A DNA stretch of 39,201 nucleotides from Patescibacteria group bacterium (GCA_041665345.1 JBAYJA010000003.1:1-39201), one strand, 5' to 3'. Shown: positions 1,961 through 26,785, numbered from the stretch's first letter. Numbers and translations: made by a program. The notes: a model not told the origin generated them from the sequence alone.

Positions 1961-2872
1961 ATGGAGGGTTTTTCTTCACGTTCACCACACGTTCCTATGC
2001 AGAAGATTCGCAAAGCAATTATCCCCGCGGCTGGCCTTGGCACGCGTTTTTTGCCGGCAACCAAAGCCATGCCCAAGGAAATGCTGCCTATTGTTGATAA
2101 ACCCATCATCCAGTACGTCGTGGAGGAAGCGGTCGCCTCTGGCATTGAAGACGTCATTATTGTTACCAGCTCAAACAAACGTTCGTTGGAAGACCATTTT
2201 GACTATCCCTACGAAATTGAAAAGAAGTTGGAAGAAGCGGGGAAAAGCGAACAAGCAGAAGAGCTCCGGCGCATTTCCCGCATGGCCAACTTCATTTACA
2301 TTCGCCAGCGTGGCGCCTACGGCAACGCCTCTCCAGTACTAACGGCAAAACACCTGGTGCGGGGTGAACCGTTTGCGGTGCTGTGGGGCGATGAATTTAT
2401 TCATGCCAATCCCCCACGCCTGAAGCAAATGGTGGACGTCTACGAGAAGTATGGCAAGTCCGTCATAAGTGCCGTCCGCATTCCCGAACCTGCGGATGTG
2501 TCGAAGTACGGCATTGCAGATGTTGAACCAGTAGAAGATGCGGTTTTTCGGATAAAGCAGATTGTCGAAAAGCCAAAACCCGAAGAAGCACCATCGAACT
2601 TAGCCGCGCATGGGGCATACATTCTCACACCCGAGATCTTCACCCACCTGGGCGCCTTGCAGCCTGGTAAGGGTGGCGAGCTGTGGCTCGTTGACGCTAT
2701 TAATGCGCTTATGGCAGTTGACGATGTCTACGCCAAAGAAATTGTGGGTGGCAACTATTACGACACGGGAAATAAGTTTGACTACCTTCGTGCGAATATT
2801 GAATTTGCCCTGGAACGCCCGGATTTAAAGGACAAACTCATGACCTACCTTCGCCTGCGCGTGCAAAAATAA
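1961..2872 (+). CDS. galU: UTP--glucose-1-phosphate uridylyltransferase
   Basis: Canonical GalU N-terminal core KAIIPAAGLGTRFLPATKAMPKEMLPIVDKP and full-length match to the GalU nucleotidyltransferase fold. A perfect TATAAT (1945-1950) lies 10 nt before ATG 1961, suggesting a leaderless start. The in-frame ATG 1997 (MQKIRKA...) matches the N-terminus of homologs better and is an alternative start. Confidence 0.9.
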   Translation: MEGFSSRSPHVPMQKIRKAIIPAAGLGTRFLPATKAMPKEMLPIVDKPIIQYVVEEAVASGIEDVIIVTSSNKRSLEDHFDYPYEIEKKLEEAGKSEQAEELRRISRMANFIYIRQRGAYGNASPVLTAKHLVRGEPFAVLWGDEFIHANPPRLKQMVDVYEKYGKSVISAVRIPEPADVSKYGIADVEPVEDAVFRIKQIVEKPKPEEAPSNLAAHGAYILTPEIFTHLGALQPGKGGELWLVDAINALMAVDDVYAKEIVGGNYYDTGNKFDYLRANIEFALERPDLKDKLMTYLRLRVQK

Positions 2873-2874
2873 GT

Positions 2875-4278
2875 ATGGATGATTTCAAAAAACGCATGGT
2901 ATTGCTTGGCGGTCTCCTAGGCCTTGTCATCGTGCTCATTATTGGCTACCAAATCTTTCAACGCTCACGAACCGGGGCAGTAGATTGCTCTTCGTCACCG
3001 GTGAAGCGAGTGGAGCTTTCCTGGTGGGGACACCTGGGTGAGGATCAAGCTCAAGCGTTCATTAACGCATACACCAGCCGCCGGCCCTACGTTACCATTA
3101 CCTACCGCAAATTGAGCGAGACGGACAGTGACCAGCAACTCATTGAGGCCTGGGCACGCGGAACCGGTCCGGACATCTACAGCGTGAAGAATGAGCAACT
3201 ACGGTACTTCACCGCATCAGGTTTGGTGACTCCCATGCCTGCCACCACCACCAGCTACACGTACACGGTGAAAAAAGTCTGGGGCATTAAAGAGGAGTTG
3301 AGCGTGTGCAAGCAAACCAAACCTCTGCCAACGTTAGAGTCATTGAAGAGCACCTTCGTTGCTGGAGCCGTGGAAGATATGGCGAAGAACGGGCAAATTG
3401 TTGGCTACCCGCTGAACTTCGACAGCGTGGCTATGTTCTACAACCAGAAGATGCTTGATGATGCGGGCATCCTCACCCCGCCCAGAACGTGGGTAGACTT
3501 TGCGGAGAAGGTGGTACCCAAGCTCACCCTGGAAGATGCGAGCGGCAATCTCACTCGTTCCGGTGCGGCCATGGGTCGGGGGACGAACGTGCTTCGGAAC
3601 CCGGAAATCGTCGCTGGGCTGCTCCAGCAGTACAATGTGCCACTGACTGATGCAACGGGCACGCAAGTGGCCTTTGGCAGCGGTACCAATGCACAAGCCG
3701 TCCTCACCTTGGCAGCAAGCTTCGGTATGCCCACCAAACGAAATTACAGCTGGAACGCCACTTTCCCTGAATCACTTGAGGCTCTGGCACAGGGCAAAGC
3801 CGCCGTGGCCTTTGGCACGCGTGAAGACTACCAAAAAGTGGTAAACCAAACCACCGGCACGGATATCCGCGTGGCTCCCTTCCCCCAAGCTGCTGCCAAC
3901 GGCACCACGTACGTGGCCAACTACTGGCTGGAAACAGTTGCCCGCGCTGCCAAAGACCCAAATGTGGCCTGGGACTTCCTCCGCACGATCGCTGACCCAA
4001 CGCAAGCAAAAATCATCACCGATACGGACACTCCGGCTGCCCGAACTTTAGTGCAGACTGCACGAGGCACAGAAGAGGAGAATCTCTCCATTGCCCAGGT
4101 CTTCGCGCGCCAAGCTGCAACTGCAAAGCCGTGGTACACGGGTGTCAATGCAACCAAGGGCCGCGAGGCGCTGAACACGCTCATTGACACTATTGGCGAT
4201 CAGAAGGAACCAATTGCCCAAGCAATTGAACGCGCCCAAGCACTCTTCCAAATCTCGCTGCGTATACCTGGCCGATGA
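2875..4278 (+). CDS. extracellular solute-binding protein (ABC transporter SBP family 1-like) with N-terminal membrane anchor
   Basis: N-terminal hydrophobic helix LLGGLLGLVIVLIIGY followed by a ~430-aa soluble domain with sugar-SBP-like composition (many aromatic/Gly/Thr residues, GYPLNFDSVAMFYNQKML). No permease or ATPase gene is adjacent. Confidence 0.65.
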   Translation: MDDFKKRMVLLGGLLGLVIVLIIGYQIFQRSRTGAVDCSSSPVKRVELSWWGHLGEDQAQAFINAYTSRRPYVTITYRKLSETDSDQQLIEAWARGTGPDIYSVKNEQLRYFTASGLVTPMPATTTSYTYTVKKVWGIKEELSVCKQTKPLPTLESLKSTFVAGAVEDMAKNGQIVGYPLNFDSVAMFYNQKMLDDAGILTPPRTWVDFAEKVVPKLTLEDASGNLTRSGAAMGRGTNVLRNPEIVAGLLQQYNVPLTDATGTQVAFGSGTNAQAVLTLAASFGMPTKRNYSWNATFPESLEALAQGKAAVAFGTREDYQKVVNQTTGTDIRVAPFPQAAANGTTYVANYWLETVARAAKDPNVAWDFLRTIADPTQAKIITDTDTPAARTLVQTARGTEEENLSIAQVFARQAATAKPWYTGVNATKGREALNTLIDTIGDQKEPIAQAIERAQALFQISLRIPGR

Positions 4279-5072
4279 AACGTTTTCTTCTCACTCTTAC
4301 AATTGCACTGAGCGCACTGCTTGTCTTTCCGGCTACAAGCAATGCGGCCAACCTCCCCCCAATTATTCCTGGGTGTGACCAAACCCAGTACACCGTATCA
4401 GGCACCAATGGAAATAAGGAAACGATCCCCCCTGGAACAATCATCGATTCGTCGCTGTACGGCACGGACGCATTCCCCTTAACGACCGTAACGGTTACTG
4501 GCTACTCGCTGAGTCGTGACTGCCAACTCACAGACTTCTTACAAGTGTTCATCAACCTCTACTCCTGGGGCTTGTACATCATCTCGGTTCTGGCACTGGT
4601 CTTCATGTTCGTGGGCGGTGGGACGTTGCTCTTTGCCGCTGGCAGTGAAGAGCGAGTACGCACAGGGAAAACAGTGCTAAAAAATACCATACTTGGTCTC
4701 CTGATTGCCCTGAGTAGTTGGATCATTGTGAACTTGGCGCTCGTCGCTATTCTCCCGGACACGGAAGAAAATCGCAAAGACGGCGTTGCGCATATCATTA
4801 AGAACCAACCATGGTTCAAGGTGGAAAATGATGCGCCCGCGTGTCAACCGAATGTTTCTCCAACCTATGGTTGCAAAAGCCAAACGGTGCGCGACTACCA
4901 AACAAAGCTTTCCAGCAAGCGTTGCTTCCCAAGTCCAAATGGAGAAAATATCACCAGTATTTTTGACAACAACACCATGGCTGCGTGGCTGAATTTACAA
5001 GGGGTAAACAAGGTGGTTCCGCCAACCAACCGATTAGAAGATCCGGATAATTACTCCGTCTCCTGCTTGTAA
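4275..5072 (+). CDS. pilin-like membrane protein (TrbC/VirB2-type T4SS pilin-like core) with signal peptide and Cys-containing C-terminal extension
   Basis: Signal peptide (...PATSNA); core of two TM helices flanking GGGTLLFAAGSEERVRTGKTVLKN, resembling the two downstream small pilin-like ORFs; start overlaps the SBP stop by 4 nt (ATGA). Confidence 0.55.
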   Translation: MKRFLLTLTIALSALLVFPATSNAANLPPIIPGCDQTQYTVSGTNGNKETIPPGTIIDSSLYGTDAFPLTTVTVTGYSLSRDCQLTDFLQVFINLYSWGLYIISVLALVFMFVGGGTLLFAAGSEERVRTGKTVLKNTILGLLIALSSWIIVNLALVAILPDTEENRKDGVAHIIKNQPWFKVENDAPACQPNVSPTYGCKSQTVRDYQTKLSSKRCFPSPNGENITSIFDNNTMAAWLNLQGVNKVVPPTNRLEDPDNYSVSCL

Positions 5073-5094: not shown

Positions 5095-5427
5095 ATGCGC
5101 ATCCTACAATCTCTTAAACTCAGTCTCATCGCCTTCGCCCTGCCCCTCACCACACGCGCGGCAGAATTGACCAATCCCTTAGGCGTGGATGACGCCAAGG
5201 AGTTCGTGGTTCGCGTGCTCCGCTACTCCTTGGGCCTTTTGGGTGTGGTCGCGCTCATTATGATCCTCTACGGTGGTTTCCTCATGCTCACGTCCGCGGG
5301 GAGCGCAGACCAAATTAAGAAAGCGAAAGGAACCATCATCTGGGCTGCAGTTGGCATTGCGGTCATTCTGCTCAGCTGGACTATCCTCCAGTATATTTTC
5401 CAAACTTTGAACGAGGTGGCAAGCTAA
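5095..5427 (+). CDS. TrbC/VirB2-like (T4SS-type) pilin-like protein, paralog 2
   Basis: 110 aa. Signal peptide, then motif LLGVVALIMILYGGFLMLTSAGSADQIKKAKGTIIWAAVGIAVILLSW (two TM helices with a short basic loop), typical of VirB2/TrbC-family pilins abundant in CPR genomes. Confidence 0.65.
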   Translation: MRILQSLKLSLIAFALPLTTRAAELTNPLGVDDAKEFVVRVLRYSLGLLGVVALIMILYGGFLMLTSAGSADQIKKAKGTIIWAAVGIAVILLSWTILQYIFQTLNEVAS

Positions 5428-5537: not shown

Positions 5538-5894
5538 ATGAAACTCAACCGCAAACTTTTGGCAGGCGCCATCTCCGTCGGCGTCCTCGCCCTTCCCTTC
5601 GCTGCTTCAGCTATAACGATTGAAAACGTCGGTGGCACGCTGACCCTCGGTTCCGCTGATTTGAAGCAGACTGTCCTGAACATTATTACCTTTGTCTTGG
5701 GCCTCCTCGGGCTCATCGCCGTCATCATGATTCTCTACGGCGGCTTCATCTGGCTCACGGCCGGTGGCAACGAAGACAAAGTGTCTTCTGCAAAACGGAT
5801 TATCTCCTCAGCCATCGTTGGCTTGGTAGTCATCCTGATCTCCTGGGCAATCGTGAACTTCGTCGTGAAGAGCACGGTCAACGTTACCGCCTAG
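5538..5894 (+). CDS. TrbC/VirB2-like (T4SS-type) pilin-like protein, paralog 3
   Basis: 118 aa. Signal peptide; LLGLIAVIMILYGGFIWLTAGGNEDKVSSAKRIISSAIVGLVVILISW is clearly paralogous to 5095..5427. SD AAGGGGGTG precedes the ATG. Confidence 0.65.
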   Translation: MKLNRKLLAGAISVGVLALPFAASAITIENVGGTLTLGSADLKQTVLNIITFVLGLLGLIAVIMILYGGFIWLTAGGNEDKVSSAKRIISSAIVGLVVILISWAIVNFVVKSTVNVTA

Positions 5895-6114: not shown

Positions 6115-8019
6115 ATGCGCACCCGTATCGCTCTCTCCTTCCTTGGTCTTATTGGACTTGCTGTGCTTTGCTGGACGCTCCTGTTAGCAAACGCAAAACT
6201 CCACGCTGGCGTAACGAATGCACTGGATCTTGGTATTTACACCCAGGTGGCATGGCTATCTGGACATGGACATATTTTTGGTTTTACCATCCACCCCCAC
6301 CTCTACCTGGGTGACCATGTTGAATTTTTGTTCGTACTTGCTGCTCTCCCCTTCCGGCTGTTCCCCTGGCCTCTGACACTCGTTGCGCTGCAAGGATTGG
6401 CAGTCGTGGGTGCAGCATTTGCGCTCTACACCTTCTGCTTGCGTGTGGGATTAGCTACCAAGAGTAGCTTGGTTTGGGCAAGCATTTTCCTTCTCAACCC
6501 CTTCACGCTCAACGCGCTTGTTTTCGAGTTCCACGCATTGCTCTTTGCATTACCGTTCGTCTTTCTCGCAGCAATTGCCTACCAGAAAAAAACCTACAAT
6601 ACTTTTTGGCTATGGTTAATCGTCGTCCTCCTTGCGCGGGAAGATGCCAGCATTTTTGTGGCTAGCTTTGCCGTGCTGGGTCTGCTGGAGCGTCGCTCAC
6701 TCCGCTGGTGGCTGTGGCCAGGAATCGTTGCGGTCCTTTGGTTCTTTGGTACCTCACTACTCGCCGGGGCAATCAACGGTGAAGGGTACAAATTCCTGAG
6801 CCTGCTTTCGGGCGAGAGCAGCGCTGGTGGGTCACTTCGTAATATTCTGTTAGTGTTCAACCTTGGCAATGTCCTAGTGCTCATTGCGCTCCTCATAGGA
6901 ATGGTTGGCCTGCCTCTGCTCGCCTGGCGCTGGGCAGTGACGCTGCTCGTACCGTTCTTCGCCCTTGGTTTGGCTGGGTTGCAGGGAGGAGACCTGATTC
7001 TCCAAACCCACTACGCCGTGTTCTTCTTACCTATGCTGTTCTGCAGTGCGGTACTTGGGTGGCACTCCTTCACCTCCCGCCCTCCAAGCTGGGCACATAC
7101 CCTGGGTGAACACCTGCGTCCACTCAGTTGGATAACGCTCGGCGTCGTTTCGGTGTACGGTCTACTAACCTTCGGCCCAACCATTGGGGCAATCCAAGCC
7201 TGGCGAGCTATCACCCCGGCGCAGCAGGCCAAAGGCGCGGCAATGCAAAGTTTGCGCAATGCAACTGCCCCATCCGCGAGCGTCCTGGCTGGCTATGGCA
7301 CGCTGCCGCTGTTCAGCGCAAGGGCGAATATCTACGCCAGCCACTACGCTTTCCTGGGCAAACGGCAGTACAGTGATCAAGACTATCCCCTACCCAGCAA
7401 ACTTGACCTGGCTGTGCTGGATGCTGAAGACTTTGTCACCTACCAAGTCCAGTTTGCAAAAAAACCTTCCCGTGCCACTGACTACCTGACTGGCGTCAAA
7501 CGCTTTACCGACCTGCTTGCCGCACACCAGCTCCGGCTCACCAGCATTGATGACACGCTGCTGACGTTTACCACCCAGGGAACTGACCTCTTCCCACAGG
7601 TGGTAACGCAACGCACACGCGAGCCACTCAGCGGGGTGGAATTCCTCATCCAAACGCCCGCGCCTGCAATCCAAATCGCGGATGGCAAAACAACCCTACC
7701 CATCATCGCCCAAGTTGGAAACCCCTCACTAGCAAATCTCCAACTTGAACTTCGCTGGTTCAATGCTTCTCACCAGCTGCTGGAAACCCGCTACCTGCCG
7801 CTCGGGTACGGATTGTACCCAACTTCTGCCTGGAAAAATACTGACGAAATAACCACCAACTTCACACTCGTGGTCCCAGATGAAGCCGCCTCTGGCGAAC
7901 TGCGGGCGATCATCCCCAGCGGCCACCTGGCTCTCAATGGTTGGCGTGCAGCTGAAGTCAAACTCGACAAAGATACCCAGCAGATTGGTTTGCCAGTAAC
8001 GGTGGAGGTAGAACGTTAA
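6115..8019 (+). CDS. polytopic membrane protein, DUF2079-like (putative membrane glycosyltransferase) with C-terminal extracytoplasmic domain
   Basis: About 10 predicted TM helices in the first ~330 aa; ALDLGIYTQVAW...HPHLYLGDHVEF loop motif reminiscent of DUF2079; C-terminal ~300 aa soluble. The 5' part of the ORF-track call (6001-6114) is the noncoding conserved element. Confidence 0.55.
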   Translation: MRTRIALSFLGLIGLAVLCWTLLLANAKLHAGVTNALDLGIYTQVAWLSGHGHIFGFTIHPHLYLGDHVEFLFVLAALPFRLFPWPLTLVALQGLAVVGAAFALYTFCLRVGLATKSSLVWASIFLLNPFTLNALVFEFHALLFALPFVFLAAIAYQKKTYNTFWLWLIVVLLAREDASIFVASFAVLGLLERRSLRWWLWPGIVAVLWFFGTSLLAGAINGEGYKFLSLLSGESSAGGSLRNILLVFNLGNVLVLIALLIGMVGLPLLAWRWAVTLLVPFFALGLAGLQGGDLILQTHYAVFFLPMLFCSAVLGWHSFTSRPPSWAHTLGEHLRPLSWITLGVVSVYGLLTFGPTIGAIQAWRAITPAQQAKGAAMQSLRNATAPSASVLAGYGTLPLFSARANIYASHYAFLGKRQYSDQDYPLPSKLDLAVLDAEDFVTYQVQFAKKPSRATDYLTGVKRFTDLLAAHQLRLTSIDDTLLTFTTQGTDLFPQVVTQRTREPLSGVEFLIQTPAPAIQIADGKTTLPIIAQVGNPSLANLQLELRWFNASHQLLETRYLPLGYGLYPTSAWKNTDEITTNFTLVVPDEAASGELRAIIPSGHLALNGWRAAEVKLDKDTQQIGLPVTVEVER

Positions 8020-9680
8020 GCCGGGGGCAGCACTTCGTACACCTTCGCGCTCGGCGTATCGTGGATCAATTTGAGGTAGGACTTACCCTCTGGGCTAAAT
8101 GGTTCAAACTGTTCTTTTTCTAATTCGGTCCAGAAAAAGTATCGAATTCCTTCTTGCCGAAGAAATGCCTCAGGATTTCCTTCTGGGGTTGTAAAAGTTT
8201 CATACACACCCTTCTGCTTTTCAAAATACCCAAGTGTTTGGTGCCCATGCGCAAAGTATGTGGGCAGCAGAGTTCGTCCACTGAGAATGTACGACGTCGT
8301 TGATACGGAAAGGGTAATGCCAGGCGGCTGCGTCTTCAGCCAATCCATGGTTTCCAGGGTGGTTTTTGGTTGCATGTAGAGCGACCATTCCCCGGGTGTG
8401 TATACATACGAACGACTTATATCCCGCGCCATGAGGTAAAGCGGCGAGTAGCACAGCAAGAGAATGGCAAGCCATACTGTACCCGAACGCCACACAATTT
8501 TCAGTGGACTGTTCTGTGTGCGCGCAATAATTTGCTCCCATAGAAAAACGAGCGCGAAACTTGCCAAAATTGCAAAAACGATATGGAGACCATTGGTAAA
8601 CCGGCGCTGGATTTGCACAGGCACGTAGAGGAGGAACGCGTGCATGGGTGCCCAGGCGAGCAGAAAGAGCATGGGCAAAGAGCGGGGTAACCGAACAACC
8701 CGTAGCCAACCCCAAACCGCAAAAACCAGGAGGAAGCCATAGCCAATGCAGTAGTTCCAAATGGGTGGCGAAGTGGTGATATTTTGCTTTGCCCAACCAC
8801 CTAAAGCTGGCTCTATCTGGTAAACGGCAATGAAGTACGCGCCAATCCCTGCGGTAACAAGCCCCATGATTGCCAAACGGACAATGGAACGTTTGGCTTT
8901 GGCAATGGAAAATGCTCGATCATAGAGAATGCGAACAAACGGCAAAATAATCAAGACGCAAAAAATGACTGGTAAGTCATACGGGTGGAGAATTCCCAGG
9001 AGTGCCGTGAGGCCAGCAAAAATGAAGTGTGGCACCGTGCCTGGACTTTGCTCATCCCGCACGGCGAAGAGGAAAGTGAGTAAGAGCAGTATTTGAGATA
9101 TGATGAACAGGGGTGAGTGCAGGAGCGTGGTAAAAGTAAAGGCTTCCGAAACCCACATATCCACAGGATTCTTTGTGAGCAATTCTTGCAAACTCGTGAG
9201 GTGCAAAAAGGGAGAAACGTACCCACCCAGCCCCATACCAAAAGCTAAAGCAACAAAAGCAATCCGACGTTGCAGGGATTTCTCAATGAACAAGAGTAAG
9301 GCTTTATACGCAATCCATAGAAAAATACCCGCTAGAAAAATTTTCACGAGGTGAAAAAGTATTGCATTGGGTAGGTGAAAAACACCTGCCAGGAAACCCA
9401 AAATTGCCCAAAGTGGTTGGAAAAAAGCATACCTTTGCGCCTCAGGTGTAAAAACGTTCGTAAAGAACACATGCCCCGTGGTTCGCGCCTGCTCCATCAT
9501 GGAAAAGTAGACGTTCGTGTCCGAGGGAGCCAAAGTGCTGAAACCCATGAAGACATCTCCCTTCCGTAGCCAAAGAGCACCGAGCACAAGCGGCAAGACG
9601 CCTAGGATAATTGCAGCCGTTGCTATCCAAAAAGCAAATGGACGCTCAGCTTTTGGAATCGAGGGGAGAATAGGGTGCAT
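8016..9680 (-). CDS. large polytopic membrane protein, GT-C-fold-like (paralog of 11058..12716)
   Basis: 554 aa, >10 TM helices, C-terminal soluble domain. Strong paralogy to 11058..12716, e.g. FSMMEQARTTGHVFFTNVF..FFQPLWAILG vs LSYIEQARTSGHVFFANVF..FFQPLWAVIG, and C-terminal IRYFFWTELEKEQF vs IRYLFWTEQEKQFF. Confidence 0.6.
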   Translation of the reverse strand: MHPILPSIPKAERPFAFWIATAAIILGVLPLVLGALWLRKGDVFMGFSTLAPSDTNVYFSMMEQARTTGHVFFTNVFTPEAQRYAFFQPLWAILGFLAGVFHLPNAILFHLVKIFLAGIFLWIAYKALLLFIEKSLQRRIAFVALAFGMGLGGYVSPFLHLTSLQELLTKNPVDMWVSEAFTFTTLLHSPLFIISQILLLLTFLFAVRDEQSPGTVPHFIFAGLTALLGILHPYDLPVIFCVLIILPFVRILYDRAFSIAKAKRSIVRLAIMGLVTAGIGAYFIAVYQIEPALGGWAKQNITTSPPIWNYCIGYGFLLVFAVWGWLRVVRLPRSLPMLFLLAWAPMHAFLLYVPVQIQRRFTNGLHIVFAILASFALVFLWEQIIARTQNSPLKIVWRSGTVWLAILLLCYSPLYLMARDISRSYVYTPGEWSLYMQPKTTLETMDWLKTQPPGITLSVSTTSYILSGRTLLPTYFAHGHQTLGYFEKQKGVYETFTTPEGNPEAFLRQEGIRYFFWTELEKEQFEPFSPEGKSYLKLIHDTPSAKVYEVLPPA

Positions 9681-9684
9681 GGGC

Positions 9685-10941
9685 TTAGTACACTGTATAA
9701 ATCATAATGAACCAGCCAACAGTCAGAGCGAATACTGCTCGGTATGCATGTTTCGTCTTCATGAACGGGGTGAGCACAAGCGGCCACGTGAGATACCAAG
9801 GCTGTACCCACTGCAAAGCAAAGCAGATAACGGCGCAGAAAACGTAGAATGCGGCTACGGGTAACTCTAGCCGCCCCTTCCACACCAACCACGTGAGCCA
9901 GCCAATGCACACAATCGCAATGCTCGTCCCAATGACGACAGCGAGCTGCAGCGCTGCATGCAACGGCATATCAGGCTGCACAGTGCGAATAATACCCAAA
10001 AATAGTTTTTGTGGGAAAAAAATCGGATTGACATAAAATTGTCGCCCCATAACCAGGAGACCTTCAAACATCCTTGGTCCAACCCATAGGAGCGCATACA
10101 TCAAAACCAATGCCACGAGGGCAGACCCGCTTGCAAAGAGCAGCTCACGAAATTTCTTTTCACGCGCGTACACTGCAAGAAAGAGTGGACTTAGCACAAC
10201 GGAGATGTGCTTCGTGGCAATGCTTAAACCAAAACTAAGTCCGGAAAAAGCAGAGTTCCCAAATGGTATGAGCGCTAAGAGGATAAGCACGACGAACAGG
10301 CCGTCATTATGCGCATCGCCAATGAGCTCAATGATCAAAATGGGATTAAGGATGACTAGGAGTGCAAGCGTCCGAGGTCGCCATCGTCCTAACAAGGCTG
10401 CGACACTTGCAAACATTGCAACGCCCAGAAATTTGAAAATGAAGAACTGCGTTACTAGTCCAGCGTGCAGTTTTCCAATGAGCACAACAATGCCCATCCA
10501 AAGTGGGCCATATGGCGAAGGGTATGGGCGCCATTGATCCCATACACCGTGCCAAATTGGATTCCCGGGGCCTAAACTTGCTGGGCCTTGGAGGTACGGG
10601 CTGGCATGCTGACTAATTTCAGCATACGCCATGTAGTTGTAGACATCACTTGATTTGGTAAGAAAATTAAGGAAGTACGGAGCAACGGAGAGTGCGAGGA
10701 CGAGAATAACCTGCTGTATGGATGGCGTATACCCGTGCTGCATCCTGTACACTGCCAAAAGGTATGCGCCGACGAGTAGAAGGAGAAAAAAAGCATGCAG
10801 TCCCTCCTGAAGATTCACTGAAAAACCATACCAGATACCCGTCTGTTCAGCAGTAAGGGCAATGCCAGCATGCAAGGCGACGGCAAGAGCAAGCCCAGTG
10901 GGCGTGTATGGAAACAGCGATCCCTTCTTTTGCGTCACCAT
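9685..10941 (-). CDS. polytopic membrane protein, DUF2029/GT87-like (putative polyprenol-P-sugar-dependent glycosyltransferase)
   Basis: 418 aa, about 10 TM helices; first extracytoplasmic loop SDVYNYMAYAEI...GNPIW resembles the D..Y...A...NPY signature of the GT87/DUF2029 family. Confidence 0.45.
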   Translation of the reverse strand: MVTQKKGSLFPYTPTGLALAVALHAGIALTAEQTGIWYGFSVNLQEGLHAFFLLLLVGAYLLAVYRMQHGYTPSIQQVILVLALSVAPYFLNFLTKSSDVYNYMAYAEISQHASPYLQGPASLGPGNPIWHGVWDQWRPYPSPYGPLWMGIVVLIGKLHAGLVTQFFIFKFLGVAMFASVAALLGRWRPRTLALLVILNPILIIELIGDAHNDGLFVVLILLALIPFGNSAFSGLSFGLSIATKHISVVLSPLFLAVYAREKKFRELLFASGSALVALVLMYALLWVGPRMFEGLLVMGRQFYVNPIFFPQKLFLGIIRTVQPDMPLHAALQLAVVIGTSIAIVCIGWLTWLVWKGRLELPVAAFYVFCAVICFALQWVQPWYLTWPLVLTPFMKTKHAYRAVFALTVGWFIMIYTVY

Positions 10942-11057
10942 GGCGATTACAAATATGCAGGTGCAAAAAAATGTAGCAAATACATCATCGTATGATTATG
11001 CAGCTACGACAATGATACCACGCAAAGAATGTAGCGCCCAAAGGAGCGATCACGCCT

Positions 11058-12716
11058 TTACAGGGCATAAATTTCAGTTGTTTGATTTTGAAAAATGAGG
11101 TGCAACCATGGGTAGTCTTGCGGGGAAAATGCTGCAAAAAATTGCTTCTCCTGTTCAGTCCAAAAGAGGTACCGAATGTGGTTTTCCTGAAAAAAAGCTT
11201 TGGCCGTATTCGCGCTTCGGGATCCTGGAAAAGCTACACGTAGTGCTTGGAACTTCTCAGCGTGATTCGGCGTTTGACTTCCATCCGAAATATACGTGGA
11301 TCGCAAGGTTTGGCTCGACAGGACAAAGCTTGTGGTGTCTGCGCTGAGGGTCAGGCCGGGTGCTTGCTGGCGAAGCCAGTGCATAGCATCAAGTGTTGCT
11401 CGGTCAAACTGGTATACCTCCCGTAGTGTCCCTGGCACCGAACCACCCACGAGCGGCTCCACAACAGTAAACCAGGTTGAAGGACACAGCACCCCTGCAA
11501 ACACCATGCCGCCAGTGGTAAGCCACAACGCCAATGGCACGCGCTGCCGCTGTGCCCATTGCCACACTGGCTCCACCGCAAGCCCTACGACGACAGCCAG
11601 CACGATGCTCAGACCATTGAGAAAACGACTTTGTACTTGCGTGGGTGAGTAGCTGAGGACCAGTGCAATGGCCGGCCAAAGCAAAAAAATGGCTTTGGCT
11701 TTTTGAAAAATGTCCCGATGCTTCCACCCTTGCCAGAGCCATAGCGGAATGTACACGCCATAGCTTATGCACACCACAAGGAGTGATGGACTTGGGGTTA
11801 CATTTTGCTGCGCCCAACCCAGAATACTGTGGTCAAGAAGCAGGGCGCTCACAAAGTAAGCTAACGCTGCCGTAGCTGCTAAACAGAGCATCTCCAGCCG
11901 AACGATGCTCTGCTTCCAGCCGGATGTTCGATACACCGGTTCACGGAAGAACCGAAGCAGGCTAACACCACACACGCAGGCAATGAGAATGACGGCATCG
12001 TATGGATGGAGTAACGCAAGCAGCAACGTACCGGCAAAGAAAACTGACCGGGGGACTTGGCCAGGCGATTCTTCGTCGCGCATTGCGAGCGTTACTAAAA
12101 AAACGAGTAGAGCTAACGTGAGAATGAAAAGTGGTGAATGGGCGATGGACTGAAAGACAGTAAACTGCGGCATAGTAATATCCGCCGGCATAAGATTGGC
12201 ACCTGGTGAAAAAATTGTTGGGAGTTGCTGTACAAATGGCAAAAAATAGAGGCCTACTCCTGAGCCAAAAACGCCGAGCGTCGTTGCTACTATCCGACCC
12301 CGGACGGTTGGTAGAAGCAAACCCGTAAATCGGTAAATGGCGAGTACCAACAGTGGGATGGATGCCAGTCGTACGATGTGAAAGACAAGCGCTGGGGCAA
12401 GGTGGAATACCCATGAAAGAAGCCCAATGACCGCCCACAAAGGCTGGAAGAAGCTCTGCGTATGCGGCTCTGCCGCAAAAACGTTTGCAAAAAAGACGTG
12501 GCCGCTGGTTCGCGCCTGCTCAATGTACGAGAGGTAAATACCATTGTCATTGCGTGCGGTTTCACCAAAACCAATGAACACTTTCTCCGGTGGTAACCGG
12601 AGCACACCTACGAGCAATGGAATCCCGGCACAGAGGATTGCTACCAGGCTCAGCGCCCATAAAAACTGCCGCTCCCTTTTTGCAAACGGGGGAAAAAGGC
12701 GTTCCATACAATGCAA
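11058..12716 (-). CDS. large polytopic membrane protein, GT-C-fold-like (paralog of 8016..9680)
   Basis: 552 aa; same architecture and conserved blocks as 8016..9680 (see that entry). Confidence 0.6.
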   Translation of the reverse strand: MHCMERLFPPFAKRERQFLWALSLVAILCAGIPLLVGVLRLPPEKVFIGFGETARNDNGIYLSYIEQARTSGHVFFANVFAAEPHTQSFFQPLWAVIGLLSWVFHLAPALVFHIVRLASIPLLVLAIYRFTGLLLPTVRGRIVATTLGVFGSGVGLYFLPFVQQLPTIFSPGANLMPADITMPQFTVFQSIAHSPLFILTLALLVFLVTLAMRDEESPGQVPRSVFFAGTLLLALLHPYDAVILIACVCGVSLLRFFREPVYRTSGWKQSIVRLEMLCLAATAALAYFVSALLLDHSILGWAQQNVTPSPSLLVVCISYGVYIPLWLWQGWKHRDIFQKAKAIFLLWPAIALVLSYSPTQVQSRFLNGLSIVLAVVVGLAVEPVWQWAQRQRVPLALWLTTGGMVFAGVLCPSTWFTVVEPLVGGSVPGTLREVYQFDRATLDAMHWLRQQAPGLTLSADTTSFVLSSQTLRSTYISDGSQTPNHAEKFQALRVAFPGSRSANTAKAFFQENHIRYLFWTEQEKQFFAAFSPQDYPWLHLIFQNQTTEIYAL

Positions 12717-12731
12717 TGTGTGCTACGAAGC

Positions 12732-13343
12732 CTACCGCTTCTCCAGCAGCAACATGGTCCACGGGATGGGCTGCTTGCCCCGGCGAACAACGAATGATTG
12801 CCCAACGAATCGTCGGAAACCCCACGGGGTCCAGTGGTTGATGTGCCCGGGGGTGTTCCCCCACCCTTTGAGGTACGTTCCCCGTGCCATGTTCATCACT
12901 CGCCACAGCGGCTCATGGGGTACGCTGATGATCGCCCACTTCTTGGTGACTCTAGCGAGTTCAGCCAAGGCTTTTTCTGGCTGCTCCAGGTGCTCCAGTA
13001 CTTCCAGCGCAAAAACCAAATCCACTGAGGCGTCAGGCCGGTTGAGAGCAAAAATGGATTCCACGCTGCAGGTTGCGCTGGGTACCCGCGCTTGGGTTGC
13101 TGTCACCAATTCTGGGGTGATGTCCGATGCTTGCAAGTCAACGTCAGGCAAGAAATGCCGAATGTGCTCGGTGGAAAAGCCTTCACCGCAGCCGACCTCC
13201 AACACACTCTTTAGATCGTTTGGTAATAGTCCCTGCAAAGTTTTGAAAAACCCGCGGAGGAAGTGCCGCATGATTGGGTTCTTAGATTCGTACTTCCCGC
13301 GGAAATCATCCTCCGGCCGATTGATGGGTGGTTGGTATGGCAT
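12732..13343 (-). CDS. class I SAM-dependent methyltransferase
   Basis: Motif I VLEVGCGEGFST, acidic residue after beta-2 (ASDIT), motif IV-like LVFALEVLEHL; 203 aa. Confidence 0.8.
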   Translation of the reverse strand: MPYQPPINRPEDDFRGKYESKNPIMRHFLRGFFKTLQGLLPNDLKSVLEVGCGEGFSTEHIRHFLPDVDLQASDITPELVTATQARVPSATCSVESIFALNRPDASVDLVFALEVLEHLEQPEKALAELARVTKKWAIISVPHEPLWRVMNMARGTYLKGWGNTPGHINHWTPWGFRRFVGQSFVVRRGKQPIPWTMLLLEKR

Positions 13344-13352
13344 ATCCGTACC

Positions 13353-14942
13353 TTACTCTGGATTCTGCCAAGAGTAAATCCACACCTCAGCATCTTCGTA
13401 CGCCAGTTCCACACCCGGCGTCACGCGAACATTCTCGTACATCTCCCGATGATCTTTTTCCACAAAAATCCACTTCGTATTAAAGAGGTCAAAGGCTTCA
13501 GCCAGGTTGTCCTTTTTCTGGCCCAGGGTGGTCTGCGCCCAGGCCCAGTAGCGGGTGACATCTTGGCGGTAGAGGAAGGTTGGATCCAGACCGGCGATGT
13601 ACGCGTTTACCGTGTTGTAGTAGAACAGCACGGGAAAATCATCCCAGTCACTGTGGAAGACCACGTCGCCAGGTTTGGAATGCTCTGCCATCCAGGTGGC
13701 CGAGGCTTGAAAGTGAGTAGCATTTACTCCCGAAGAAAGGTTCTGCACATTGGTGCGCTGATCCCGCGCAACCACGTATGGCACGCTGACCACAATGTAC
13801 AGCGCGAGTAGCCCCACCACAATTTTTCGACGCTGCCACTGCTGCCACACGCTCTCCCAGATGTGTCGCCAATCGCTGGTTTTCAGCACATCACCCAGCG
13901 TCACTGCTGCAGCCAAAGCAATGAACGGCACGGCATACTCCACGTACCGCCTAGACTTTAAGGTGACAACGCTGAAGAGCAGTGCGAGGAGCACCAGGGT
14001 CCACCCTTTGGCCGTCGTTCGTCGCAGGTGCACAATGGCCAGCACCAGCGCCAGTAGGAACGGAATGATGACCACCACATTATTCCCAATGAACTCGGTG
14101 AAGCCGTACGGATACCACTCCCCGCCCACGCCAATGACATTTCGGTAGTTCACCACGCCAATTTGGATAACCTGCTCCCACAGAAAATGAAAAGTGTTTG
14201 GGAAAAAAGGGTTTGCCACCATGCCCACCCCGGCGCCAGCCAAAACGCAGCCAAAGACCTGCAGCGGTCGGTAGTGCAGAAATCCCTGCCAGGTCCACCA
14301 GGGTTTCCTCCCCGCTTCCGCTGCTTCCCGTGCCCAATGCCGTACCAGGTCAACGACTGCGTACGCAAGCAATGACAGCCCGGCTGCCGCAATGAGCACC
14401 AGAAAACCGCCGTAGAGCAAGACGAAGAACCACGCCAGAAAAAATGTCAGCCACCGCTTCCCCCGGAAGATGCACCACAGACCAATGAGGAGTGTGGCCA
14501 GAGACAAGCTGGGCGCTTTGGCCAAACTCATCCGAAAGGTGAACGGCGTTGCGGCCAATAGCACTGCTGCCCAAATCCAGGCGTGGCGTACCCCAAAACT
14601 GCGAACAAACCACACCGCAACTGTCAGTAAGAGCGATGCAAAAACTACGGTCGCCAGTTTGATACCAGCCAGTGGATCCATGAGCCGCACAAAGGGAACC
14701 AGCGCAACATGATACAACCAGTGCTGGTCAATGTAGTGCTCGCCCAGCGTGGTGAAGGGCAACCAGGGCAATTCTCGCACCGCACCCTGCTGGCTGGTCA
14801 GCACCGCGATCCGCGCATGGTAGAAGGAGTCAGGATCGGCAAAGACCGCGCTCCGTTGCATCAGGAAAAAAGCAACGAAGCTCACCACAAACGTACCTAG
14901 GAGCATGAGGAGCGTCGTGTGGCTCCGCCAGTGAATAGTCAT
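13353..14942 (-). CDS. polytopic membrane protein, ArnT/PMT-like GT-C glycosyltransferase candidate
   Basis: 530 aa from ATG 14942 (the ORF-track start 15122 includes the noncoding conserved element). First loop FADPDSFYHARIA resembles the PDE.RYAEI loop motif of ArnT/PMT_2-type GT-C enzymes. About 12 TM helices, C-terminal soluble domain. Confidence 0.5.
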   Translation of the reverse strand: MTIHWRSHTTLLMLLGTFVVSFVAFFLMQRSAVFADPDSFYHARIAVLTSQQGAVRELPWLPFTTLGEHYIDQHWLYHVALVPFVRLMDPLAGIKLATVVFASLLLTVAVWFVRSFGVRHAWIWAAVLLAATPFTFRMSLAKAPSLSLATLLIGLWCIFRGKRWLTFFLAWFFVLLYGGFLVLIAAAGLSLLAYAVVDLVRHWAREAAEAGRKPWWTWQGFLHYRPLQVFGCVLAGAGVGMVANPFFPNTFHFLWEQVIQIGVVNYRNVIGVGGEWYPYGFTEFIGNNVVVIIPFLLALVLAIVHLRRTTAKGWTLVLLALLFSVVTLKSRRYVEYAVPFIALAAAVTLGDVLKTSDWRHIWESVWQQWQRRKIVVGLLALYIVVSVPYVVARDQRTNVQNLSSGVNATHFQASATWMAEHSKPGDVVFHSDWDDFPVLFYYNTVNAYIAGLDPTFLYRQDVTRYWAWAQTTLGQKKDNLAEAFDLFNTKWIFVEKDHREMYENVRVTPGVELAYEDAEVWIYSWQNPE

Positions 14943-15035
14943 GTAGGAAGTATACCGTATTGGAGGGGTGGAGGGTTTGGGTGTGGCAGCGAGTATGGTT
15001 AGAGGGTGGCGGTTTAGGATGGGTAGAGGTACGAG
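14943..15035 (-). promoter_or_regulatory. conserved C-rich upstream element, copy B (inverted relative to copy A)
   Basis: Minus-strand reading: ...CCTCTACCCATCC...CCATACTCGCTGCCACACCCAAACCCTCCACCCCTCCAATACGGTATACTTCCTAC|ATG. About 85% identical to copy A over about 70 nt; abuts ATG 14942 with no SD. Confidence 0.6.
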
Positions 15036-15204
15036 TGAAATACAATACTCCTCCCCTCCTTTCGAAGGAGCCGTCTGCGGCGGGTGCGAGCGAGCACAGC
15101 ACCTTAGGTAGGGGGAGGTCACCCTTACCGAGAAAACAAAATCACGCAGAATAAAAGTCTGGAAAAAACAAAAACATATTCTACTTCCTTCTTCTCAATC
15201 CCCT

Positions 15205-15321: not shown

Positions 15322-16380
15322 TTACCCGAGCTTTTTCTTAAAGTAATGCACCCAGTTAATTGTGGCAGGGTTAATATGATTGCGCAAGCCCAAGGCCAAG
15401 GTCAACGCTCCACCAAATGCCACTGCCGCAACTGCTTGCGAAAACCGTGTCTGCCCCGGCACTCGGAAGCTGGCAACTTTCGCAGCGTTTTTCAGCACAA
15501 CCTCGCTCGTCAACCGGAAACGCTTCTGAATGCGAGGATGGTACAGCCCTGAAGTGAGGAAGAGAAACGTCGTTTTCCGGGTATTCACCTTGGGATTGGC
15601 CAGGCCTTCCATGAGGTGGTGATTCAATTCCGGAATGGCAAAGTAGGTAGCCAGAGCTTTAGCGGTTTCATTCAGTTGATTCGCCAGGACATGCGCCGAA
15701 CCAAGAGTGTGCTCTGCACCTATCACAAAGATTTGCCGGTTGAGCAACGTGGCGGTTAAGGTAGCCACAGGATTGCCTAGCTTCCGCAAATCAAGCTGCT
15801 TTGCATACCGTTCAAGGTCACGAATGGCTTGTTCAACTACGGGTAAAGGCAAAGTGATGAGCCCGGATTTGGAAAGCAGACCCAGCAAACCAAATATCCC
15901 ATACCCTAAGCCAAGCCTGGGTTGATCAGACGGGTTTTCTCTGGGGGTAAAGATGTACGCTGGGATATTCCCACGCTTTGCCGCGCGTCCCAACGCCCCG
16001 CCCGTGGCTTGAATTAGGATCTTCGCACCTCGCTGCTGGGCGACCTTCAGTGCGGCCAGGGTTTCTTCCGTCGTACCAGAGTAGCTGGAGAGGACAACCA
16101 ACGTCCGCTTCCCTACCCAAGCAGGCAAATGGTAATCATTCACAATCACAATTGGCACGCGCAAATACTCAGCGCAAGCTGTCTGCAGCATGTGCGCGCC
16201 CAAAGCGCTGCCACCCATGGCGGCAACCACAATCGCATCAACTTTTCCCTTCAATGAGGAGATTTTCAAGCGACGTACTTCTATCCACGCCTGCCTTGCT
16301 TGTGCGCCAAAACGCAGTACTGACCCATGGACATCCTGGGGATCGTACTGCTGCAGCAGTCGAGTGAAAGAGACTGGCAT
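15322..16380 (-). CDS. SIS-domain phosphoglucose/phosphomannose isomerase (bifunctional PGI/PMI-like)
   Basis: 352 aa; two SIS-like Rossmann segments (VVAAMGGSALGAHML and LVVLSSYSGTTEET), size and layout typical of archaeal/bacterial bifunctional PGI/PMI. Confidence 0.6.
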   Translation of the reverse strand: MPVSFTRLLQQYDPQDVHGSVLRFGAQARQAWIEVRRLKISSLKGKVDAIVVAAMGGSALGAHMLQTACAEYLRVPIVIVNDYHLPAWVGKRTLVVLSSYSGTTEETLAALKVAQQRGAKILIQATGGALGRAAKRGNIPAYIFTPRENPSDQPRLGLGYGIFGLLGLLSKSGLITLPLPVVEQAIRDLERYAKQLDLRKLGNPVATLTATLLNRQIFVIGAEHTLGSAHVLANQLNETAKALATYFAIPELNHHLMEGLANPKVNTRKTTFLFLTSGLYHPRIQKRFRLTSEVVLKNAAKVASFRVPGQTRFSQAVAAVAFGGALTLALGLRNHINPATINWVHYFKKKLG

Positions 16381-16647: not shown

Positions 16648-19600
16648 ATGGAAATCAAGTCAAAATTTCACTTTTTTCGTCAGAACAACTTCACCTACCT
16701 GGACAGCGCCGCCACAACCCAAGTACCGGATGCGGTGACGCGTGTGGTGGAGCAGTCTTTGCAGTACAAAGGCAACCCGAATCGTAGTGCGCACGCCGTA
16801 GCGGAAAAAAATGAACAGGCGTTGCAAGCCGCCCGGGAGAATATTGCCGGCTTCATTGGCGCCACGGCAGAGGAACTCATCTTCACAAATAACACTACGG
16901 ACAGTATCAACCTTGCGGTGGATGGTATTGCCGACCATGTAAAGCCTGGTGACGAAATTGTCATCGCCGTGTCTGAACATCACTCCAACATGCTGCCCTA
17001 CACCAAGCTGGTAAAGCGTGGGGCGAAAATCCGCATCGTAGGCATCAAAGACGGCGTGGTCAATCCAAACGATGTGCAGAAAGCGCTTACGCCCAAAACC
17101 CGTATCGTGGCCGTGGGACACTGCTCCAATGTCCTCGGGAACATCAACGACGTGGTAGCTATTGGCAAACTCGTTAAAAACCACGACAAGAAAATCTTCT
17201 TCATTGTGGATGGCGCGCAAGCCGTGGCGCACATCCCAGTAGACGTCCAGGCAATGCAGGCGGACTTCTACGCGTTCTCGGGCCACAAAATGTACGGGCC
17301 AGATGGCGTAGGTGGATTGTACATTGCCCGAAAAATCCACCACCTGCTCACTCCGACACGTATGGGTGGCGGCACCGTGCAGAATGTGGCCATCACCTTT
17401 GATAAAACTGGTGATATCATCTCCCCTGACTACTTCCCGTCGCTCATCACGTTGGAAGGTGGCACGCCAAACCTGTCCAACATTCTCGGCCTTTCTCGCG
17501 CCGTCAACTTCATTCGTTCTATTGGCTTCCCAGATATTCAGGCACACGAACGCGGGCTGCTAAAACGTTTGCTGGATGGGTTGGCGACAATTCCTGGGGT
17601 GCAGGTCTTTGGTCCCACCGACCTCCAACAAAAAATTGGCGTCCTCTCTTTTGGTTTGCAAGACACGAACACCAAAGAACTCGGCGAACACCTTGGTCGC
17701 CAAAAGATCTGCATTCGCTACGGCGCACATTGTGCCTTCCCGCTAGCGGAAAAGCTGGGCCAAGAAACCCTGCGCATTAGTCTGGGCGTGTACAACACCG
17801 AAGAAGACATTGACCACGTGCTCAACGAAATGCGATTCTTCTTCGATAAGAAACAAGGGCGCATTACCAACCCCAACCTGGAGCCCCTGCGCAACAAGCT
17901 CTACTACCGCAGCACCCATGTGGTGAATTCCTATGCTGCCCTGGCCGAAAAGCTGCAGCAATCCCTCTACGGCCCACAGGATACGGAAATTATTGTCATG
18001 GGTGGCCACTTCTTGGGCATACCAGACATGCAGGAAAACCGCTTCTGGCCCAGCATTGCAACCATGGTACCCGAGCGCCTGCACGGCCTCATGGATGAGT
18101 TTGGCATGACGAGCTTTCCGCTTTTCACGTGGCGCTTGGCTTGTCGGACGGTTGCGGATTTGAAAGCGCACGGATACCAAGCAAAACTGGCAATTATTGC
18201 CAATGACACAACGGGAATGAATGAACTTCGTAACTCTGAAGCCAACACAACAAAGAAAACCGCTGAGCAATACCGAACTGAGTTACTAGATACTTTTCAA
18301 GAAGACGGTCATTTACCAAATCGCTATAGTGAAATTCTCAAAGAGCACGGATTGCATAAGCGAGATATTCTCAAGAATGGTGACAAATTCGTATTTCAAG
18401 AAACCTTACTCCGAGCCAACTTCAAAAAATTTGTTGATGGTAATAAAAATTTCTTTGATGGCATCATTGCCTACACAAAAAAGGCAGAGGAGAATATCGA
18501 CTTATCAATTAAACTCCTCGATAATCAGGAAATTGCTTCCTGCACGTTTAATACATTTCAATCAAAAACTGGTGGGAAGTTTTGCATTGTTGAATTGTGT
18601 CAATTTATTGCCGAACTCTTTGGTAAACCAGAACTGATTACATTCCCCTATGTATCACAGCGCGTACTGAAACCAAAGGTGACAGCAAATCACAAGATTC
18701 TTTTTGCAATCACGCCCGCGATGTGCGACAACGCTGTGACGCGATCCGCGGAACTCTACACCAAGCTTTTCCTCCAGGAGCAGAGTAAAGGATCATTTAA
18801 ATTCTTCAACTTGCCCCTAGGCCCAAATGCTGAGCGCAGCTTAGCTATGGGCGCAGAACTCAAGTATGTCTCAGACAAAGACAATCTTGAGGTACTTGAT
18901 ATTGAGCATGAGCCCGCATTTCCAGATCTCTGGCGCTTGGCTGAGTACAAGCTCATCTACAATGCTCCTGCCTATGTAACTGAAATGACCGCGCTTTTTG
19001 CGAAGCTGGGCCTCACCAAGAAATCCGCACTGCTGGATACCTGTGTGGGTCCAGGCTTCTTTGCCACTGAGCTGTTGCGGCAAGGTTACAATCTGCATAC
19101 CGCAGACAAGAGTGAAACCATGATGGCACCATTCCGCGCAACCCTGAAAGAGCTTGGTATCAACCACCAGCCCACAGTGAGCACGTGGCTTGATTTGCCA
19201 AAACACTTCGAGGCAAATTCCATGGATATGCTCTTCAACCGTGGGAACACCTTCATCTACGCGGCAGGCGGCTGGCATGAGCGAATCACCGTGGACCGAG
19301 AAAAATCTTTGGCGAAATATTTAGAGACGTTACGCGTCTACTACAGCCTTCTCAAGCCAGGTGGCTACCTCTACGTAGATAAATTCCGTGATGCAGAAAT
19401 CCCAGATAAAAAAGTTGTTGCTCGGCTGTACATTCAGGAGCCTGCGCAGCAAAAAGACGTAGTCTTCTACGTCGAACGCAAACCAGAAGATCACATTCGC
19501 TTTGCGCAAATGCTCTTGCGCGACACCCAAGGCAAAGAGACTGGATTACCAAACATGGCCTATGACTTGAGCGTAGAAGAAATGGAAATGTTGCTACAGA

Positions 19601-23098: not shown

Positions 23099-23175
23099 GA
23101 GTTTCAACTATACGAATCGACTCTACTGCGATTTTTTGTAGCCTAAAATGGGACTTATAGTGTAAACTGGAAACC

Positions 23176-23943: not shown

Positions 23944-23945
23944 GC

Positions 23946-24686: not shown

Positions 24687-24691
24687 GGCAG

Positions 24692-25646: not shown

Positions 25647-25657
25647 CTTTACCGGCG

Positions 25658-26731: not shown

Positions 26732-26785
26732 GATATGGTGTAAGTAAGGTATACTACCAGTACTCTACCACTTACCTTTGCCCGT

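Follow-up and report, generated by a model that had tools for sequence, protein, structure and literature searches.

The DNA analysed here, called the window, is a stretch of 39,201 nucleotides from the metagenome-assembled genome of a Patescibacteria group bacterium. Between positions 6115 and 15122 it carries a block of five large membrane proteins (A to E) and one methyltransferase (MTase), and this block of GT-C glycosyltransferases is probably used to put sugars on the cell surface. A first-pass annotation, made from the sequence, had described five polytopic membrane proteins with an MTase at this place, and long open reading frames (ORFs) together with hydropathy profiles confirmed the block. 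Its neighbours (galU, a phosphoglucose/phosphomannose isomerase gene, one GT2 gene and several GT4 genes) were equally recovered by family profile searches. The interval is organized as two convergent operons, whose last genes, A and B, overlap at their stop codons. The operon on the plus strand runs from galU through G2875, a gene for a membrane-anchored protein, and three pilin genes to A, and the operon on the minus strand begins with the isomerase gene and continues with E, the MTase, D, C and B. Downstream of E the genes of the latter are separated by gaps of 4-116 bp, the MTase gene beginning 9 bp past E. The start of E is probably Met61 of a longer ORF (13353..15122), a choice that fits the database entry as well as homologs of about 530-545 residues, and D probably starts at the ATG given in Table 1. 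B, E and a sixth polytopic protein lying outside the block, F, are identical (100%) to WCV85_04820, WCV85_04840 and WCV85_04920, respectively, all encoded on a contig of 176,635 bp. An Rfam scan of the window revealed no RNA family, promoter and terminator scans of the window gave background level only, and the presence of three PF18895 pilin genes is consistent with a host from the Candidate Phyla Radiation (CPR).

Table 1. Genes and regions discussed in the text, with positions counted from the first nucleotide of the window
Feature	Coordinates	Strand	Remarks
A, DUF2079-family membrane protein	6115..8019	+	634 aa from ATG 6115; ORF opens at GTG 6001
B, polytopic, GT-C-like, no annotated family	8016..9680	-	554 aa; small STT3/AglB-like C-terminal alpha/beta domain
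C, candidate MptB/PimE/PIG-M-like (GT87/GT50-type) glycosyltransferase	9685..10941	-	418 aa
D, old paralog of B	11058..12707	-	549 aa from ATG 12707; ORF opens at TTG 12716
MTase, class I S-adenosylmethionine (SAM)-dependent methyltransferase	12732..13343	-	203 aa; Methyltransf_11, E-value 5.9e-16
E, unannotated Patescibacteria GT-C family, predicted STT3/AglB-like fold and C-terminal domain	13353..14942	-	529 aa
Bifunctional phosphoglucose/phosphomannose isomerase (PGI/PMI)	15322..16380	-	bact-PGI_C, E-value 9e-23; NCBIfam PRK08674, E-value 4e-61
Three T4SS_pilin (PF18895) genes	4275..5072, 5095..5427, 5538..5894	+	Pfam E-values 9e-8 to 6e-12
galU	1961..2872	+	TIGR01099, 329 bits, above its cutoff
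G2875, membrane-anchored, weakly periplasmic-binding-protein-like	2875..4278	+	NMT1 match at E-value 0.007 only, weak
GT2 glycosyltransferase	23176..23943	+	255 aa; Glycos_transf_2, E-value 9e-25
F, sixth polytopic membrane protein, outside the block	32027..33949	-	640 aa
Aminotransferase-methyltransferase fusion	16648..19677		1009 aa
Second sugar-metabolism block	21839..32030

Strong hydrophobicity and a polytopic topology are common to A-E in the hydropathy profiles, with some 10-13 transmembrane (TM) helices per protein as a rough estimate from hydropathy and from DSSP on the predicted models. The common architecture proposed at first for all six proteins, TM helices followed by a soluble C-terminal domain, stands as regards the polytopic part and fails in one member. 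Soluble C-terminal parts of 120-230 residues occur in A, B, D and E, that of A (about 230 residues) following a membrane-embedded N-terminal half of about 400 residues, while C remains embedded almost to its end and is devoid of such a domain. For E, DSSP combined with the positive-inside rule did not separate an 11-TM topology of the ArnT/PimE kind from a 13-TM topology of the oligosaccharyltransferase (OST) kind.

Sequence searches had little to say on three of the five proteins. B, D and E matched nothing in Pfam, NCBIfam or the PDB sequences, and among the six membrane proteins BLASTP returned B and D as the only similar pair. No genuine match came out of PDB sequence searches with the single proteins or with family profiles of E, B/D, F and A; the nanobody chains retrieved by the B/D profile were discarded as spurious, the match running through a short D-x-x-V-Y-like stretch. 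The family alignments comprised 67 E-family and 118 B/D-family sequences, the B/D family reaching 6746 representative clusters at an E-value below 1e-3. Pfam gave only stray matches on the 67 E-family members (one to Glyco_transf_22 and six to DUF7649) and one on 17 B/D-family members, to DUF6541 (PF20176), a family reached by few B/D-family members (P0135 at 5.9e-12, P0370 at 1.2e-5) and matched by neither B nor D themselves.

The fold of these proteins emerged from AF2 models of E (pLDDT 94.3, pTM 0.93) and B (pLDDT 96.8, pTM 0.95), both of high confidence, on which all fold comparisons rest. As the first-pass annotation had proposed, the models were compared with solved structures, and GT-C enzymes came out closest, with STT3B (score 21.2 for E, over 459 aligned residues, and 23.1 for B) and AglB (20.8 and 22.5) on top. 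Lower scores were obtained with Pmt4 (19.9 for E and 16.2 for B), DPY19 (19.2 and 16.5), AftA (18.5 and 20.1), ALG12 (18.5 and 19.9), PglB (17.6 and 18.5) and ArnT (17.2 and 16.7). An independent Foldseek search with E also ranked nine STT3 structures first (E-value about 1e-9, TMq about 0.61). The polytopic core matching solved GT-C enzymes, the N-terminal TM module and the juxtamembrane helices of the GT-C-A superfold are all present, and the C-terminal globular domain of E and B/D has the AglB/PglB core fold. On these models, E and B/D are previously unannotated GT-C families with an STT3/AglB-like architecture. The initial placement of E next to ArnT and PMT had to be given up, since ArnT (GT83) and PMT (GT39) rank below STT3 and AglB, no Pfam match of the PMT, PMT_2 or ArnT type was obtained, and the C-terminal domain of E is AglB-like rather than MIR. 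Transporter assignments (MFS, RND, flippase), which would have contradicted the GT-C reading of the first-pass annotation, were looked for in A-E by profile and by fold and were not found: no transporter family of Pfam or NCBIfam matched any of the five, and the transporter-like rows of Foldseek had probabilities of at most 0.08 and TM-scores of about 0.1.

C and A could be placed with the help of existing families. C matched the NCBIfam MptB model (NF038066; E-value 4.7e-11, 41.8 bits with a cutoff of 40), a partial match covering residues 85-224, and its family profile retrieved GPI mannosyltransferase 1 (PIG-M) from the PDB at an E-value of 4.8e-15. A Pfam scan of C gave no match, GT87 included, and PF09594 (GT87) matches, mostly weak, were found in genes at the position of C in syntenic loci, L001 and L003 among them. 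A GT87-like family was among those suggested for the block in the first-pass annotation, and C appears related to MptA, MptB, PimE and PIG-M at the superfamily level, which does not imply orthology. A matched Pfam DUF2079 (PF09852) with an E-value of 2.1e-31 and 109.9 bits (gathering threshold 28.2), the match covering residues 72-462 of its 672-aa ORF and positions 7-411 of the 459 of the profile; a DUF2079-like family had likewise been suggested in the first-pass annotation. Profile-profile comparison with hhalign linked E with B/D at 96-97%, over the last TM helices and the C-terminal domain, C with E at 85-90% and A with C at 68-76%, both in the N-terminal module. These links tie A, B/D, C and E loosely together, as would be expected inside GT-C.

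A conserved acidic motif is seen directly in the alignments. Directly behind TM1, one Asp is invariant in every family (in D36-P-D38 of E, D54 of B/D, D99 of C and D38 of A), and for A, C and E hhalign aligns these residues with one another, D38 of A falling on D99 of C. In PimE, ALG6, ArnT and PglB the catalytic Asp, or base, lies at the tip of the first juxtamembrane helix, JM1 (PMC12041525). The invariant Asp of E, B/D, C and A would correspond to this JM1-tip residue of the known GT-C enzymes. Other invariant residues include G66-D67-H68, E138-F139-H140 and R175-E176-D177 in the A family, besides D38, as well as D213 and K244 in the C family, besides D99. Profiles, fold comparison and this Asp thus uphold, for A-E, the GT-C reading of the first-pass annotation.

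In the E family D36-P-D38 forms an invariant DxD in loop 1, accompanied by an invariant G-G-E-W in a later external loop and, beyond the first strand that comes behind the final TM helix, by the motif H-S-D-W-D-x-F-P, in which W433, D434, F436 and P437 are invariant and H430, S431 and D432 nearly so. OSTs carry a WWDYG motif at the start of their C-terminal domain, where it binds the Ser or Thr of the sequon. E could conceivably be a true OST, a divergent relative of STT3/AglB/PglB (GT66) transferring an oligosaccharide en bloc from polyprenyl diphosphate to protein, a possibility favoured by its fold, its AglB-like C-terminal domain, the two loop motifs and the presence of H-S-D-W-D-x-F-P at a place comparable to that of WWDYG in OSTs. 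Nevertheless, we regard this as quite improbable. Neither the E nor the B/D family profile returned an OST from the PDB, none of 67 E-family and 17 B/D-family members matched Pfam STT3 at an E-value of 1 or less, and E, B and D, with no detectable sequence similarity to STT3/AglB/PglB, measure 529-554 residues against about 700-870. The B/D family has the same C-terminal domain with no W-D motif at the position aligned to that of E, and hence the domain is not diagnostic; in E itself, the motif may correspond to WWDYG by its position in the sequence, the likeness being limited to D-W-D-x-F-P. Furthermore, no nearby gene would make a diphosphate-linked oligosaccharide: among the window ORFs scanned there was no WecA/PglC-type initiating phosphoglycosyl transferase and no Wzx for such a product, and the GT2 that goes with the block would form monophosphate-linked sugars.

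The block is not peculiar to this genome. Relatives of E were found in 252 GTDB species-representative genomes which, where meaningfully named, belong to Patescibacteria (Kerfeldbacteria, Falkowbacteria and Kuenenbacteria, for example). ORFs were called in 84 loci and searched with the family profiles, and the counts of gene layout refer to the 56 species genomes in which the sequence extends 9 kb or more downstream of E, a feature being counted when it lies within 10 kb of E. The synteny observed consists of YebC on the minus strand, PGI and E on the plus strand, an optional MTase, C-type genes (one to three), an optional GT2 and B/D-type genes (again one to three). DUF2079 follows on the minus strand, and after it come 2-9 T4SS_pilin genes in an array, the binding-protein-like gene and galU. 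A B/D-type gene was near E in 41 of the 56 genomes and a C-type gene in 37; DUF2079 was present in 33, GT2 in 24 and the MTase in 11, and 35 had four or more GT-C genes. PGI is a nearly constant neighbour of E, its homologs, directly upstream of E, accounting for 62 ORFs across the 84 loci, and an MTase homolog directly follows E in several genomes. Since E in these genomes is mostly 35-43% identical to that of the window, the lineages sharing the layout are deeply diverged. Among the cluster-bearing records, many have 'uncultured Gammaproteobacteria bacterium' as their title, and one has 'Vicinamibacterales', probably as placeholder names or through binning errors; the records concerned are among L005, L007, L024, L034, L040, L056, L060, L063, L064, L066, L069, L073, L074, L076, L077 and L084.

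The pilin genes of this layout raise the question of a protein acceptor. According to this alternative, the principal rival of the mechanism proposed below, the GT-C enzymes, especially A and E, would O- or N-glycosylate T4SS-pilin-like or other surface proteins, with polyprenyl-phosphate sugars as donors. In the window A is co-directional with the three pilin genes and lies just downstream of them, and in 33 of the 56 genomes pilin genes lie near E, in arrays that follow the DUF2079 gene or E itself (they abut E in L056, L059, L064 and L067). Moreover, the nearest folds of E and B belong to protein-modifying enzymes (STT3, AglB, Pmt4, DPY19, PglB), the C-terminal domain is of the AglB type and the best NCBIfam match of the GT2 is PgfS. 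Precedents exist in the arabinosylation of Pseudomonas pilins by TfpW, the actinobacterial Pmt and the Pgf system of S. mutans, which combines the GT2 enzyme PgfS with two GT-C enzymes. Even so, such an activity seems rather unlikely, since the short pilins (110-118 residues) expose very little outside the membrane, five to six GT-C enzymes exceed the needs of any known system, and N-x-S/T is not consistently enriched in the co-clustered secreted proteins. G2875, of 467 residues and with an N-terminal TM anchor, contains 7 such sequons where 2.8 would be expected (P 0.011). An excess is not seen in its 26 homologs (z 0.9), and the pilin families give mixed statistics (z from -2.3 to 2.5). Sequon enrichment was consequently rejected as a sign of N-glycosylation, being inconsistent across the G2875 homologs and the pilin families. 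Improbable too, in our opinion, is a more daring version in which E would be a miniature STT3/AglB-type transferase, unrecognizable by sequence, and the best-conserved enzyme of a Patescibacteria-wide glycosylation of pilin-like or surface proteins, B/D and C diversifying the glycan. If true, the oligosaccharyltransferase lineage would have a bacterial branch not seen before, belonging to organisms which live attached to host cells.

As to the arrays themselves, T4SS_pilin genes (2-9 copies) were always found beside the GT-C cluster, as in L061, L068, L071, L076 and L078; in L068, L071 and L078 the array is partly inverted and E is duplicated.

The genes of the cluster have not diverged at the same pace. 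The comparison was made with L005, the nearest relative, and also took in L008 and L009. With respect to the window proteins, the MTase is 95% identical in L005 and 72% in L008, and E 92% and 72%, while the figures fall to 83% and 46% for B, 82% and 55% for A, and 62% and 42% for D; C is 55% identical in L005 and was not detected in L008. PGI and YebC, which the L005 contig does not carry, are 63% and 62% identical in L008, and hence E is more conserved there than either of them. B and D are paralogs along their full length (35% identity, BLASTP E-value 9e-100), as the first-pass annotation had stated, though not recent ones: because L005 holds separate orthologs of each, the duplication must be old. 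The slight difference in composition reported between them is barely one (GC 0.488 against 0.519, GC at third codon positions, GC3, 0.523 against 0.530). Positive selection on recent paralogs was dropped as an explanation, given the 35% identity, the own ortholog of each copy and the saturation to be expected in the ratio of nonsynonymous to synonymous substitutions (dN/dS). Within the window, GC3 is 0.43-0.53 in B, C, D, the GT2 and F and 0.64-0.73 in E, the MTase and the GT4 genes, with C, D and B at 0.52-0.53 compared with 0.68 for E. Judged by these comparisons, E is a core enzyme under strong constraint, and the copy number of C, D and B is variable and their evolution, or exchange, fast; the uneven divergence suggests that the middle of the cluster undergoes diversifying selection or gene exchange. 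A core that is conserved (E, MTase) beside a middle that changes fast (C, D, B) recalls surface-antigen loci, and suggests a host- or phage-driven diversification of a surface glycan.

Regarding the sugar donor, the GT2 of the window has PgfS, AglJ and ArnC among its best NCBIfam matches, mixed with GT2 enzymes acting on soluble substrates. PgfS, AglJ and ArnC are polyprenyl-phosphate glycosyltransferases, ArnC being the undecaprenyl-phosphate Ara4FN transferase. It is homologous to the GT2 genes found inside the cluster in the 24 genomes mentioned above. In addition, natural fusions were observed in P0375, P0384 and P0404 (one of them from Candidatus Uhrbacteria), where an N-terminal GT2 domain precedes a B/D-type domain; the GT2 of the window is 23-26% identical over its full length to the fused domains of P0384 and P0404 (E-value about 1e-19). 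In two very large proteins, P0300 and P0320 (1352-1391 residues), the B/D-type domain is preceded by a match to YfhO that is confined to the C-terminal end of the model. The GT2 is thus a candidate polyprenyl-phosphate-sugar synthase feeding the GT-C enzymes, and the fusions and in-cluster genes would support polyprenyl-phosphate sugars as donors. A partner GT2 of the polyprenyl-phosphate sugar synthase kind, as in the three-component systems, is present, and we infer its substrate. Such systems follow an established scheme, in which a C55-P-sugar synthase of the GT-A kind works together with a flippase and a GT-C transferase (PMC8035078).

The GT2 fusions also bear on whether these proteins are enzymes at all. 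Proteins with a GT-C-like fold may be non-enzymatic, serving as scaffolds in the way of PIG-U/GAB1 of the glycosylphosphatidylinositol (GPI) transamidase, or as transporters or flippases. For the block this is extremely improbable, for while the fold is shared, the position of the GT-C catalytic Asp is invariant in all four families, PIG-U scores far below the catalytic GT-C enzymes, no transporter family was met by sequence or fold, and the fusions point to sugar transfer.

The window contains as well a second block devoted to sugar metabolism (Table 1), with an MshA/sucrose-phosphate-synthase-like GT4, the GT2, a methyltransferase, an NAD epimerase/dehydratase, an S6PP-like HAD phosphatase, an APH-family kinase, three more GT4 genes and a GalT-like uridylyltransferase; neither an initiating phosphoglycosyl transferase nor a flippase was found among its genes.

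Taken together, we consider extracytoplasmic glycosylation by the GT-C cluster, from lipid-linked sugars, to be the likely general mechanism. The fold, the acidic motif, the synteny and the GT2 fusions are what the analysis showed, and we infer the kind of donor, the side of the membrane on which catalysis takes place and the acceptor. An activated hexose would be supplied in the cytoplasm by PGI/PMI and GalU, and a GT2 of the GtrB/DPM1 type (that of the window, or the one lying in the cluster in many relatives) would load the sugar onto polyprenyl phosphate. Once the lipid-linked sugar had been flipped across the membrane, the GT-C enzymes, five in number and belonging to four families (E, C, B/D and A), would transfer sugars at its outer face, each using as catalytic base the invariant Asp of its first external loop. 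E would then represent the conserved anchor step, and the structure would be diversified by C, D and B, which diverge fast and vary in copy number. The MTase beside E, which in NCBIfam weakly resembles BioC, MftM and Pse-associated methylases, may O-methylate a sugar. Since four GT-C families stand side by side, an envelope glycan or lipoglycan which is built stepwise or multiply decorated is the most likely product. This product would follow the logic of lipomannan assembly by the mycobacterial PimE/MptA/MptB enzymes and of teichoic-acid glycosylation by CsbB/GtcA/YfhO in Gram-positive bacteria. The envelope glycosylation proposed in the first-pass annotation is in this way supported, with corrections regarding the age of the paralogs, the family of E, the domain make-up of C, and F.

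Some considerations weigh against this interpretation. The inclusion of DUF2079 in the GT-C superfamily, which would hold for A, draws on hhalign links that are only modest (51-76%) and on the Pfam clan of DUF2079, which we take to be GT-C. Vertical inheritance in one Patescibacteria lineage, instead of a functional coupling, could account for part of the conservation of gene order, and the constant pilin neighbours point equally to a protein acceptor. On the donor side, the GT2 lies 8 kb away from the block and falls far short of all curated NCBIfam cutoffs, and no GtrA- or Wzx-type flippase was found among the scanned ORFs of the window, although one may be encoded elsewhere in the genome.

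The proposed pathway shares features with several known systems without coinciding with any of them. Like GtrA/GtrB/GtrC and CsbB/GtcA/YfhO, it would combine a GT2 and a GT-C enzyme across the membrane, a likeness which extends to the B/D-GT2 fusions and the partial YfhO match; unlike them, it would employ five GT-C enzymes from four families where they have a single one, none being of the YfhO, PMT_2 or GtrC type, and the small GtrA/GtcA-type flippase of the three-component systems had no match among the window ORFs scanned. In the mycobacterial pathways of phosphatidylinositol mannosides (PIM), lipomannan and arabinan (PimE, MptA, MptB, AftA-D, Emb) the genes are scattered, as opposed to the tight cluster described here, C falls far below the equivalog cutoff of MptA (TIGR03459; 42.6 against 439.4 bits), and partners of the Ppm1 and PimA/B types were not identified here. 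We know of no lipoglycan in Patescibacteria. As for the Pfam families, DUF2079, of which A is a clear member, and DUF6541 are both uncharacterised. A literature search of incomplete coverage gave nothing relevant on DUF2079, nor on CPR/Patescibacteria in combination with GT-C, oligosaccharyltransferase, mannosyltransferase or pilin glycosylation. While GT-C enzymes and GT2/GT-C glycosylation systems were already known, the E and B/D families appear to be new, as does the multi-GT-C cluster beside pilin arrays across Patescibacteria.

The sixth polytopic protein, F, had been included in the GT-C reading, which could not be maintained for it at the same level as for A-E. F and 53 members of its family had no match in Pfam, NCBIfam or the PDB, and hhalign of F to A, B/D, C and E gave probabilities below 2%. 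In its family D71-G72 is invariant or nearly so and E74 nearly invariant (D-G-x-E, after the first TM helix), and F may be a GT-C enzyme. Its GC content is 0.46, against 0.55-0.57 in the flanks, and its homologs, often fused to LamG and TPR, are found outside CPR (Geobacter, Bacteroidota, Chitinophagales); F may have been acquired horizontally. Elsewhere in the window, the fusion protein of Table 1 joins a class-V aminotransferase (NifS/IscS-like, residues 16-390) to a C-terminal SAM methyltransferase (residues ~790-930), and the intervening stretch of about 400 residues is without a family assignment.

Patescibacteria (CPR) are ultra-small and mostly uncultured bacteria, with a stripped-down metabolism and a contact-dependent way of life, whose surface chemistry is almost unknown. 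In this context, it is significant that they keep a cluster of four to six GT-C enzymes beside pilin-like arrays, and that the anchor enzyme is better conserved than the neighbouring housekeeping genes. The maintenance of the cluster, the conservation of its anchor and the pilin neighbours together point to an extracytoplasmic glycosylation pathway that would be central to the envelope. Moreover, two large families so far regarded as hypothetical, E in 252 species genomes and B/D with about 6,700 clusters, gain a predicted fold and a candidate catalytic residue which is open to experimental testing.

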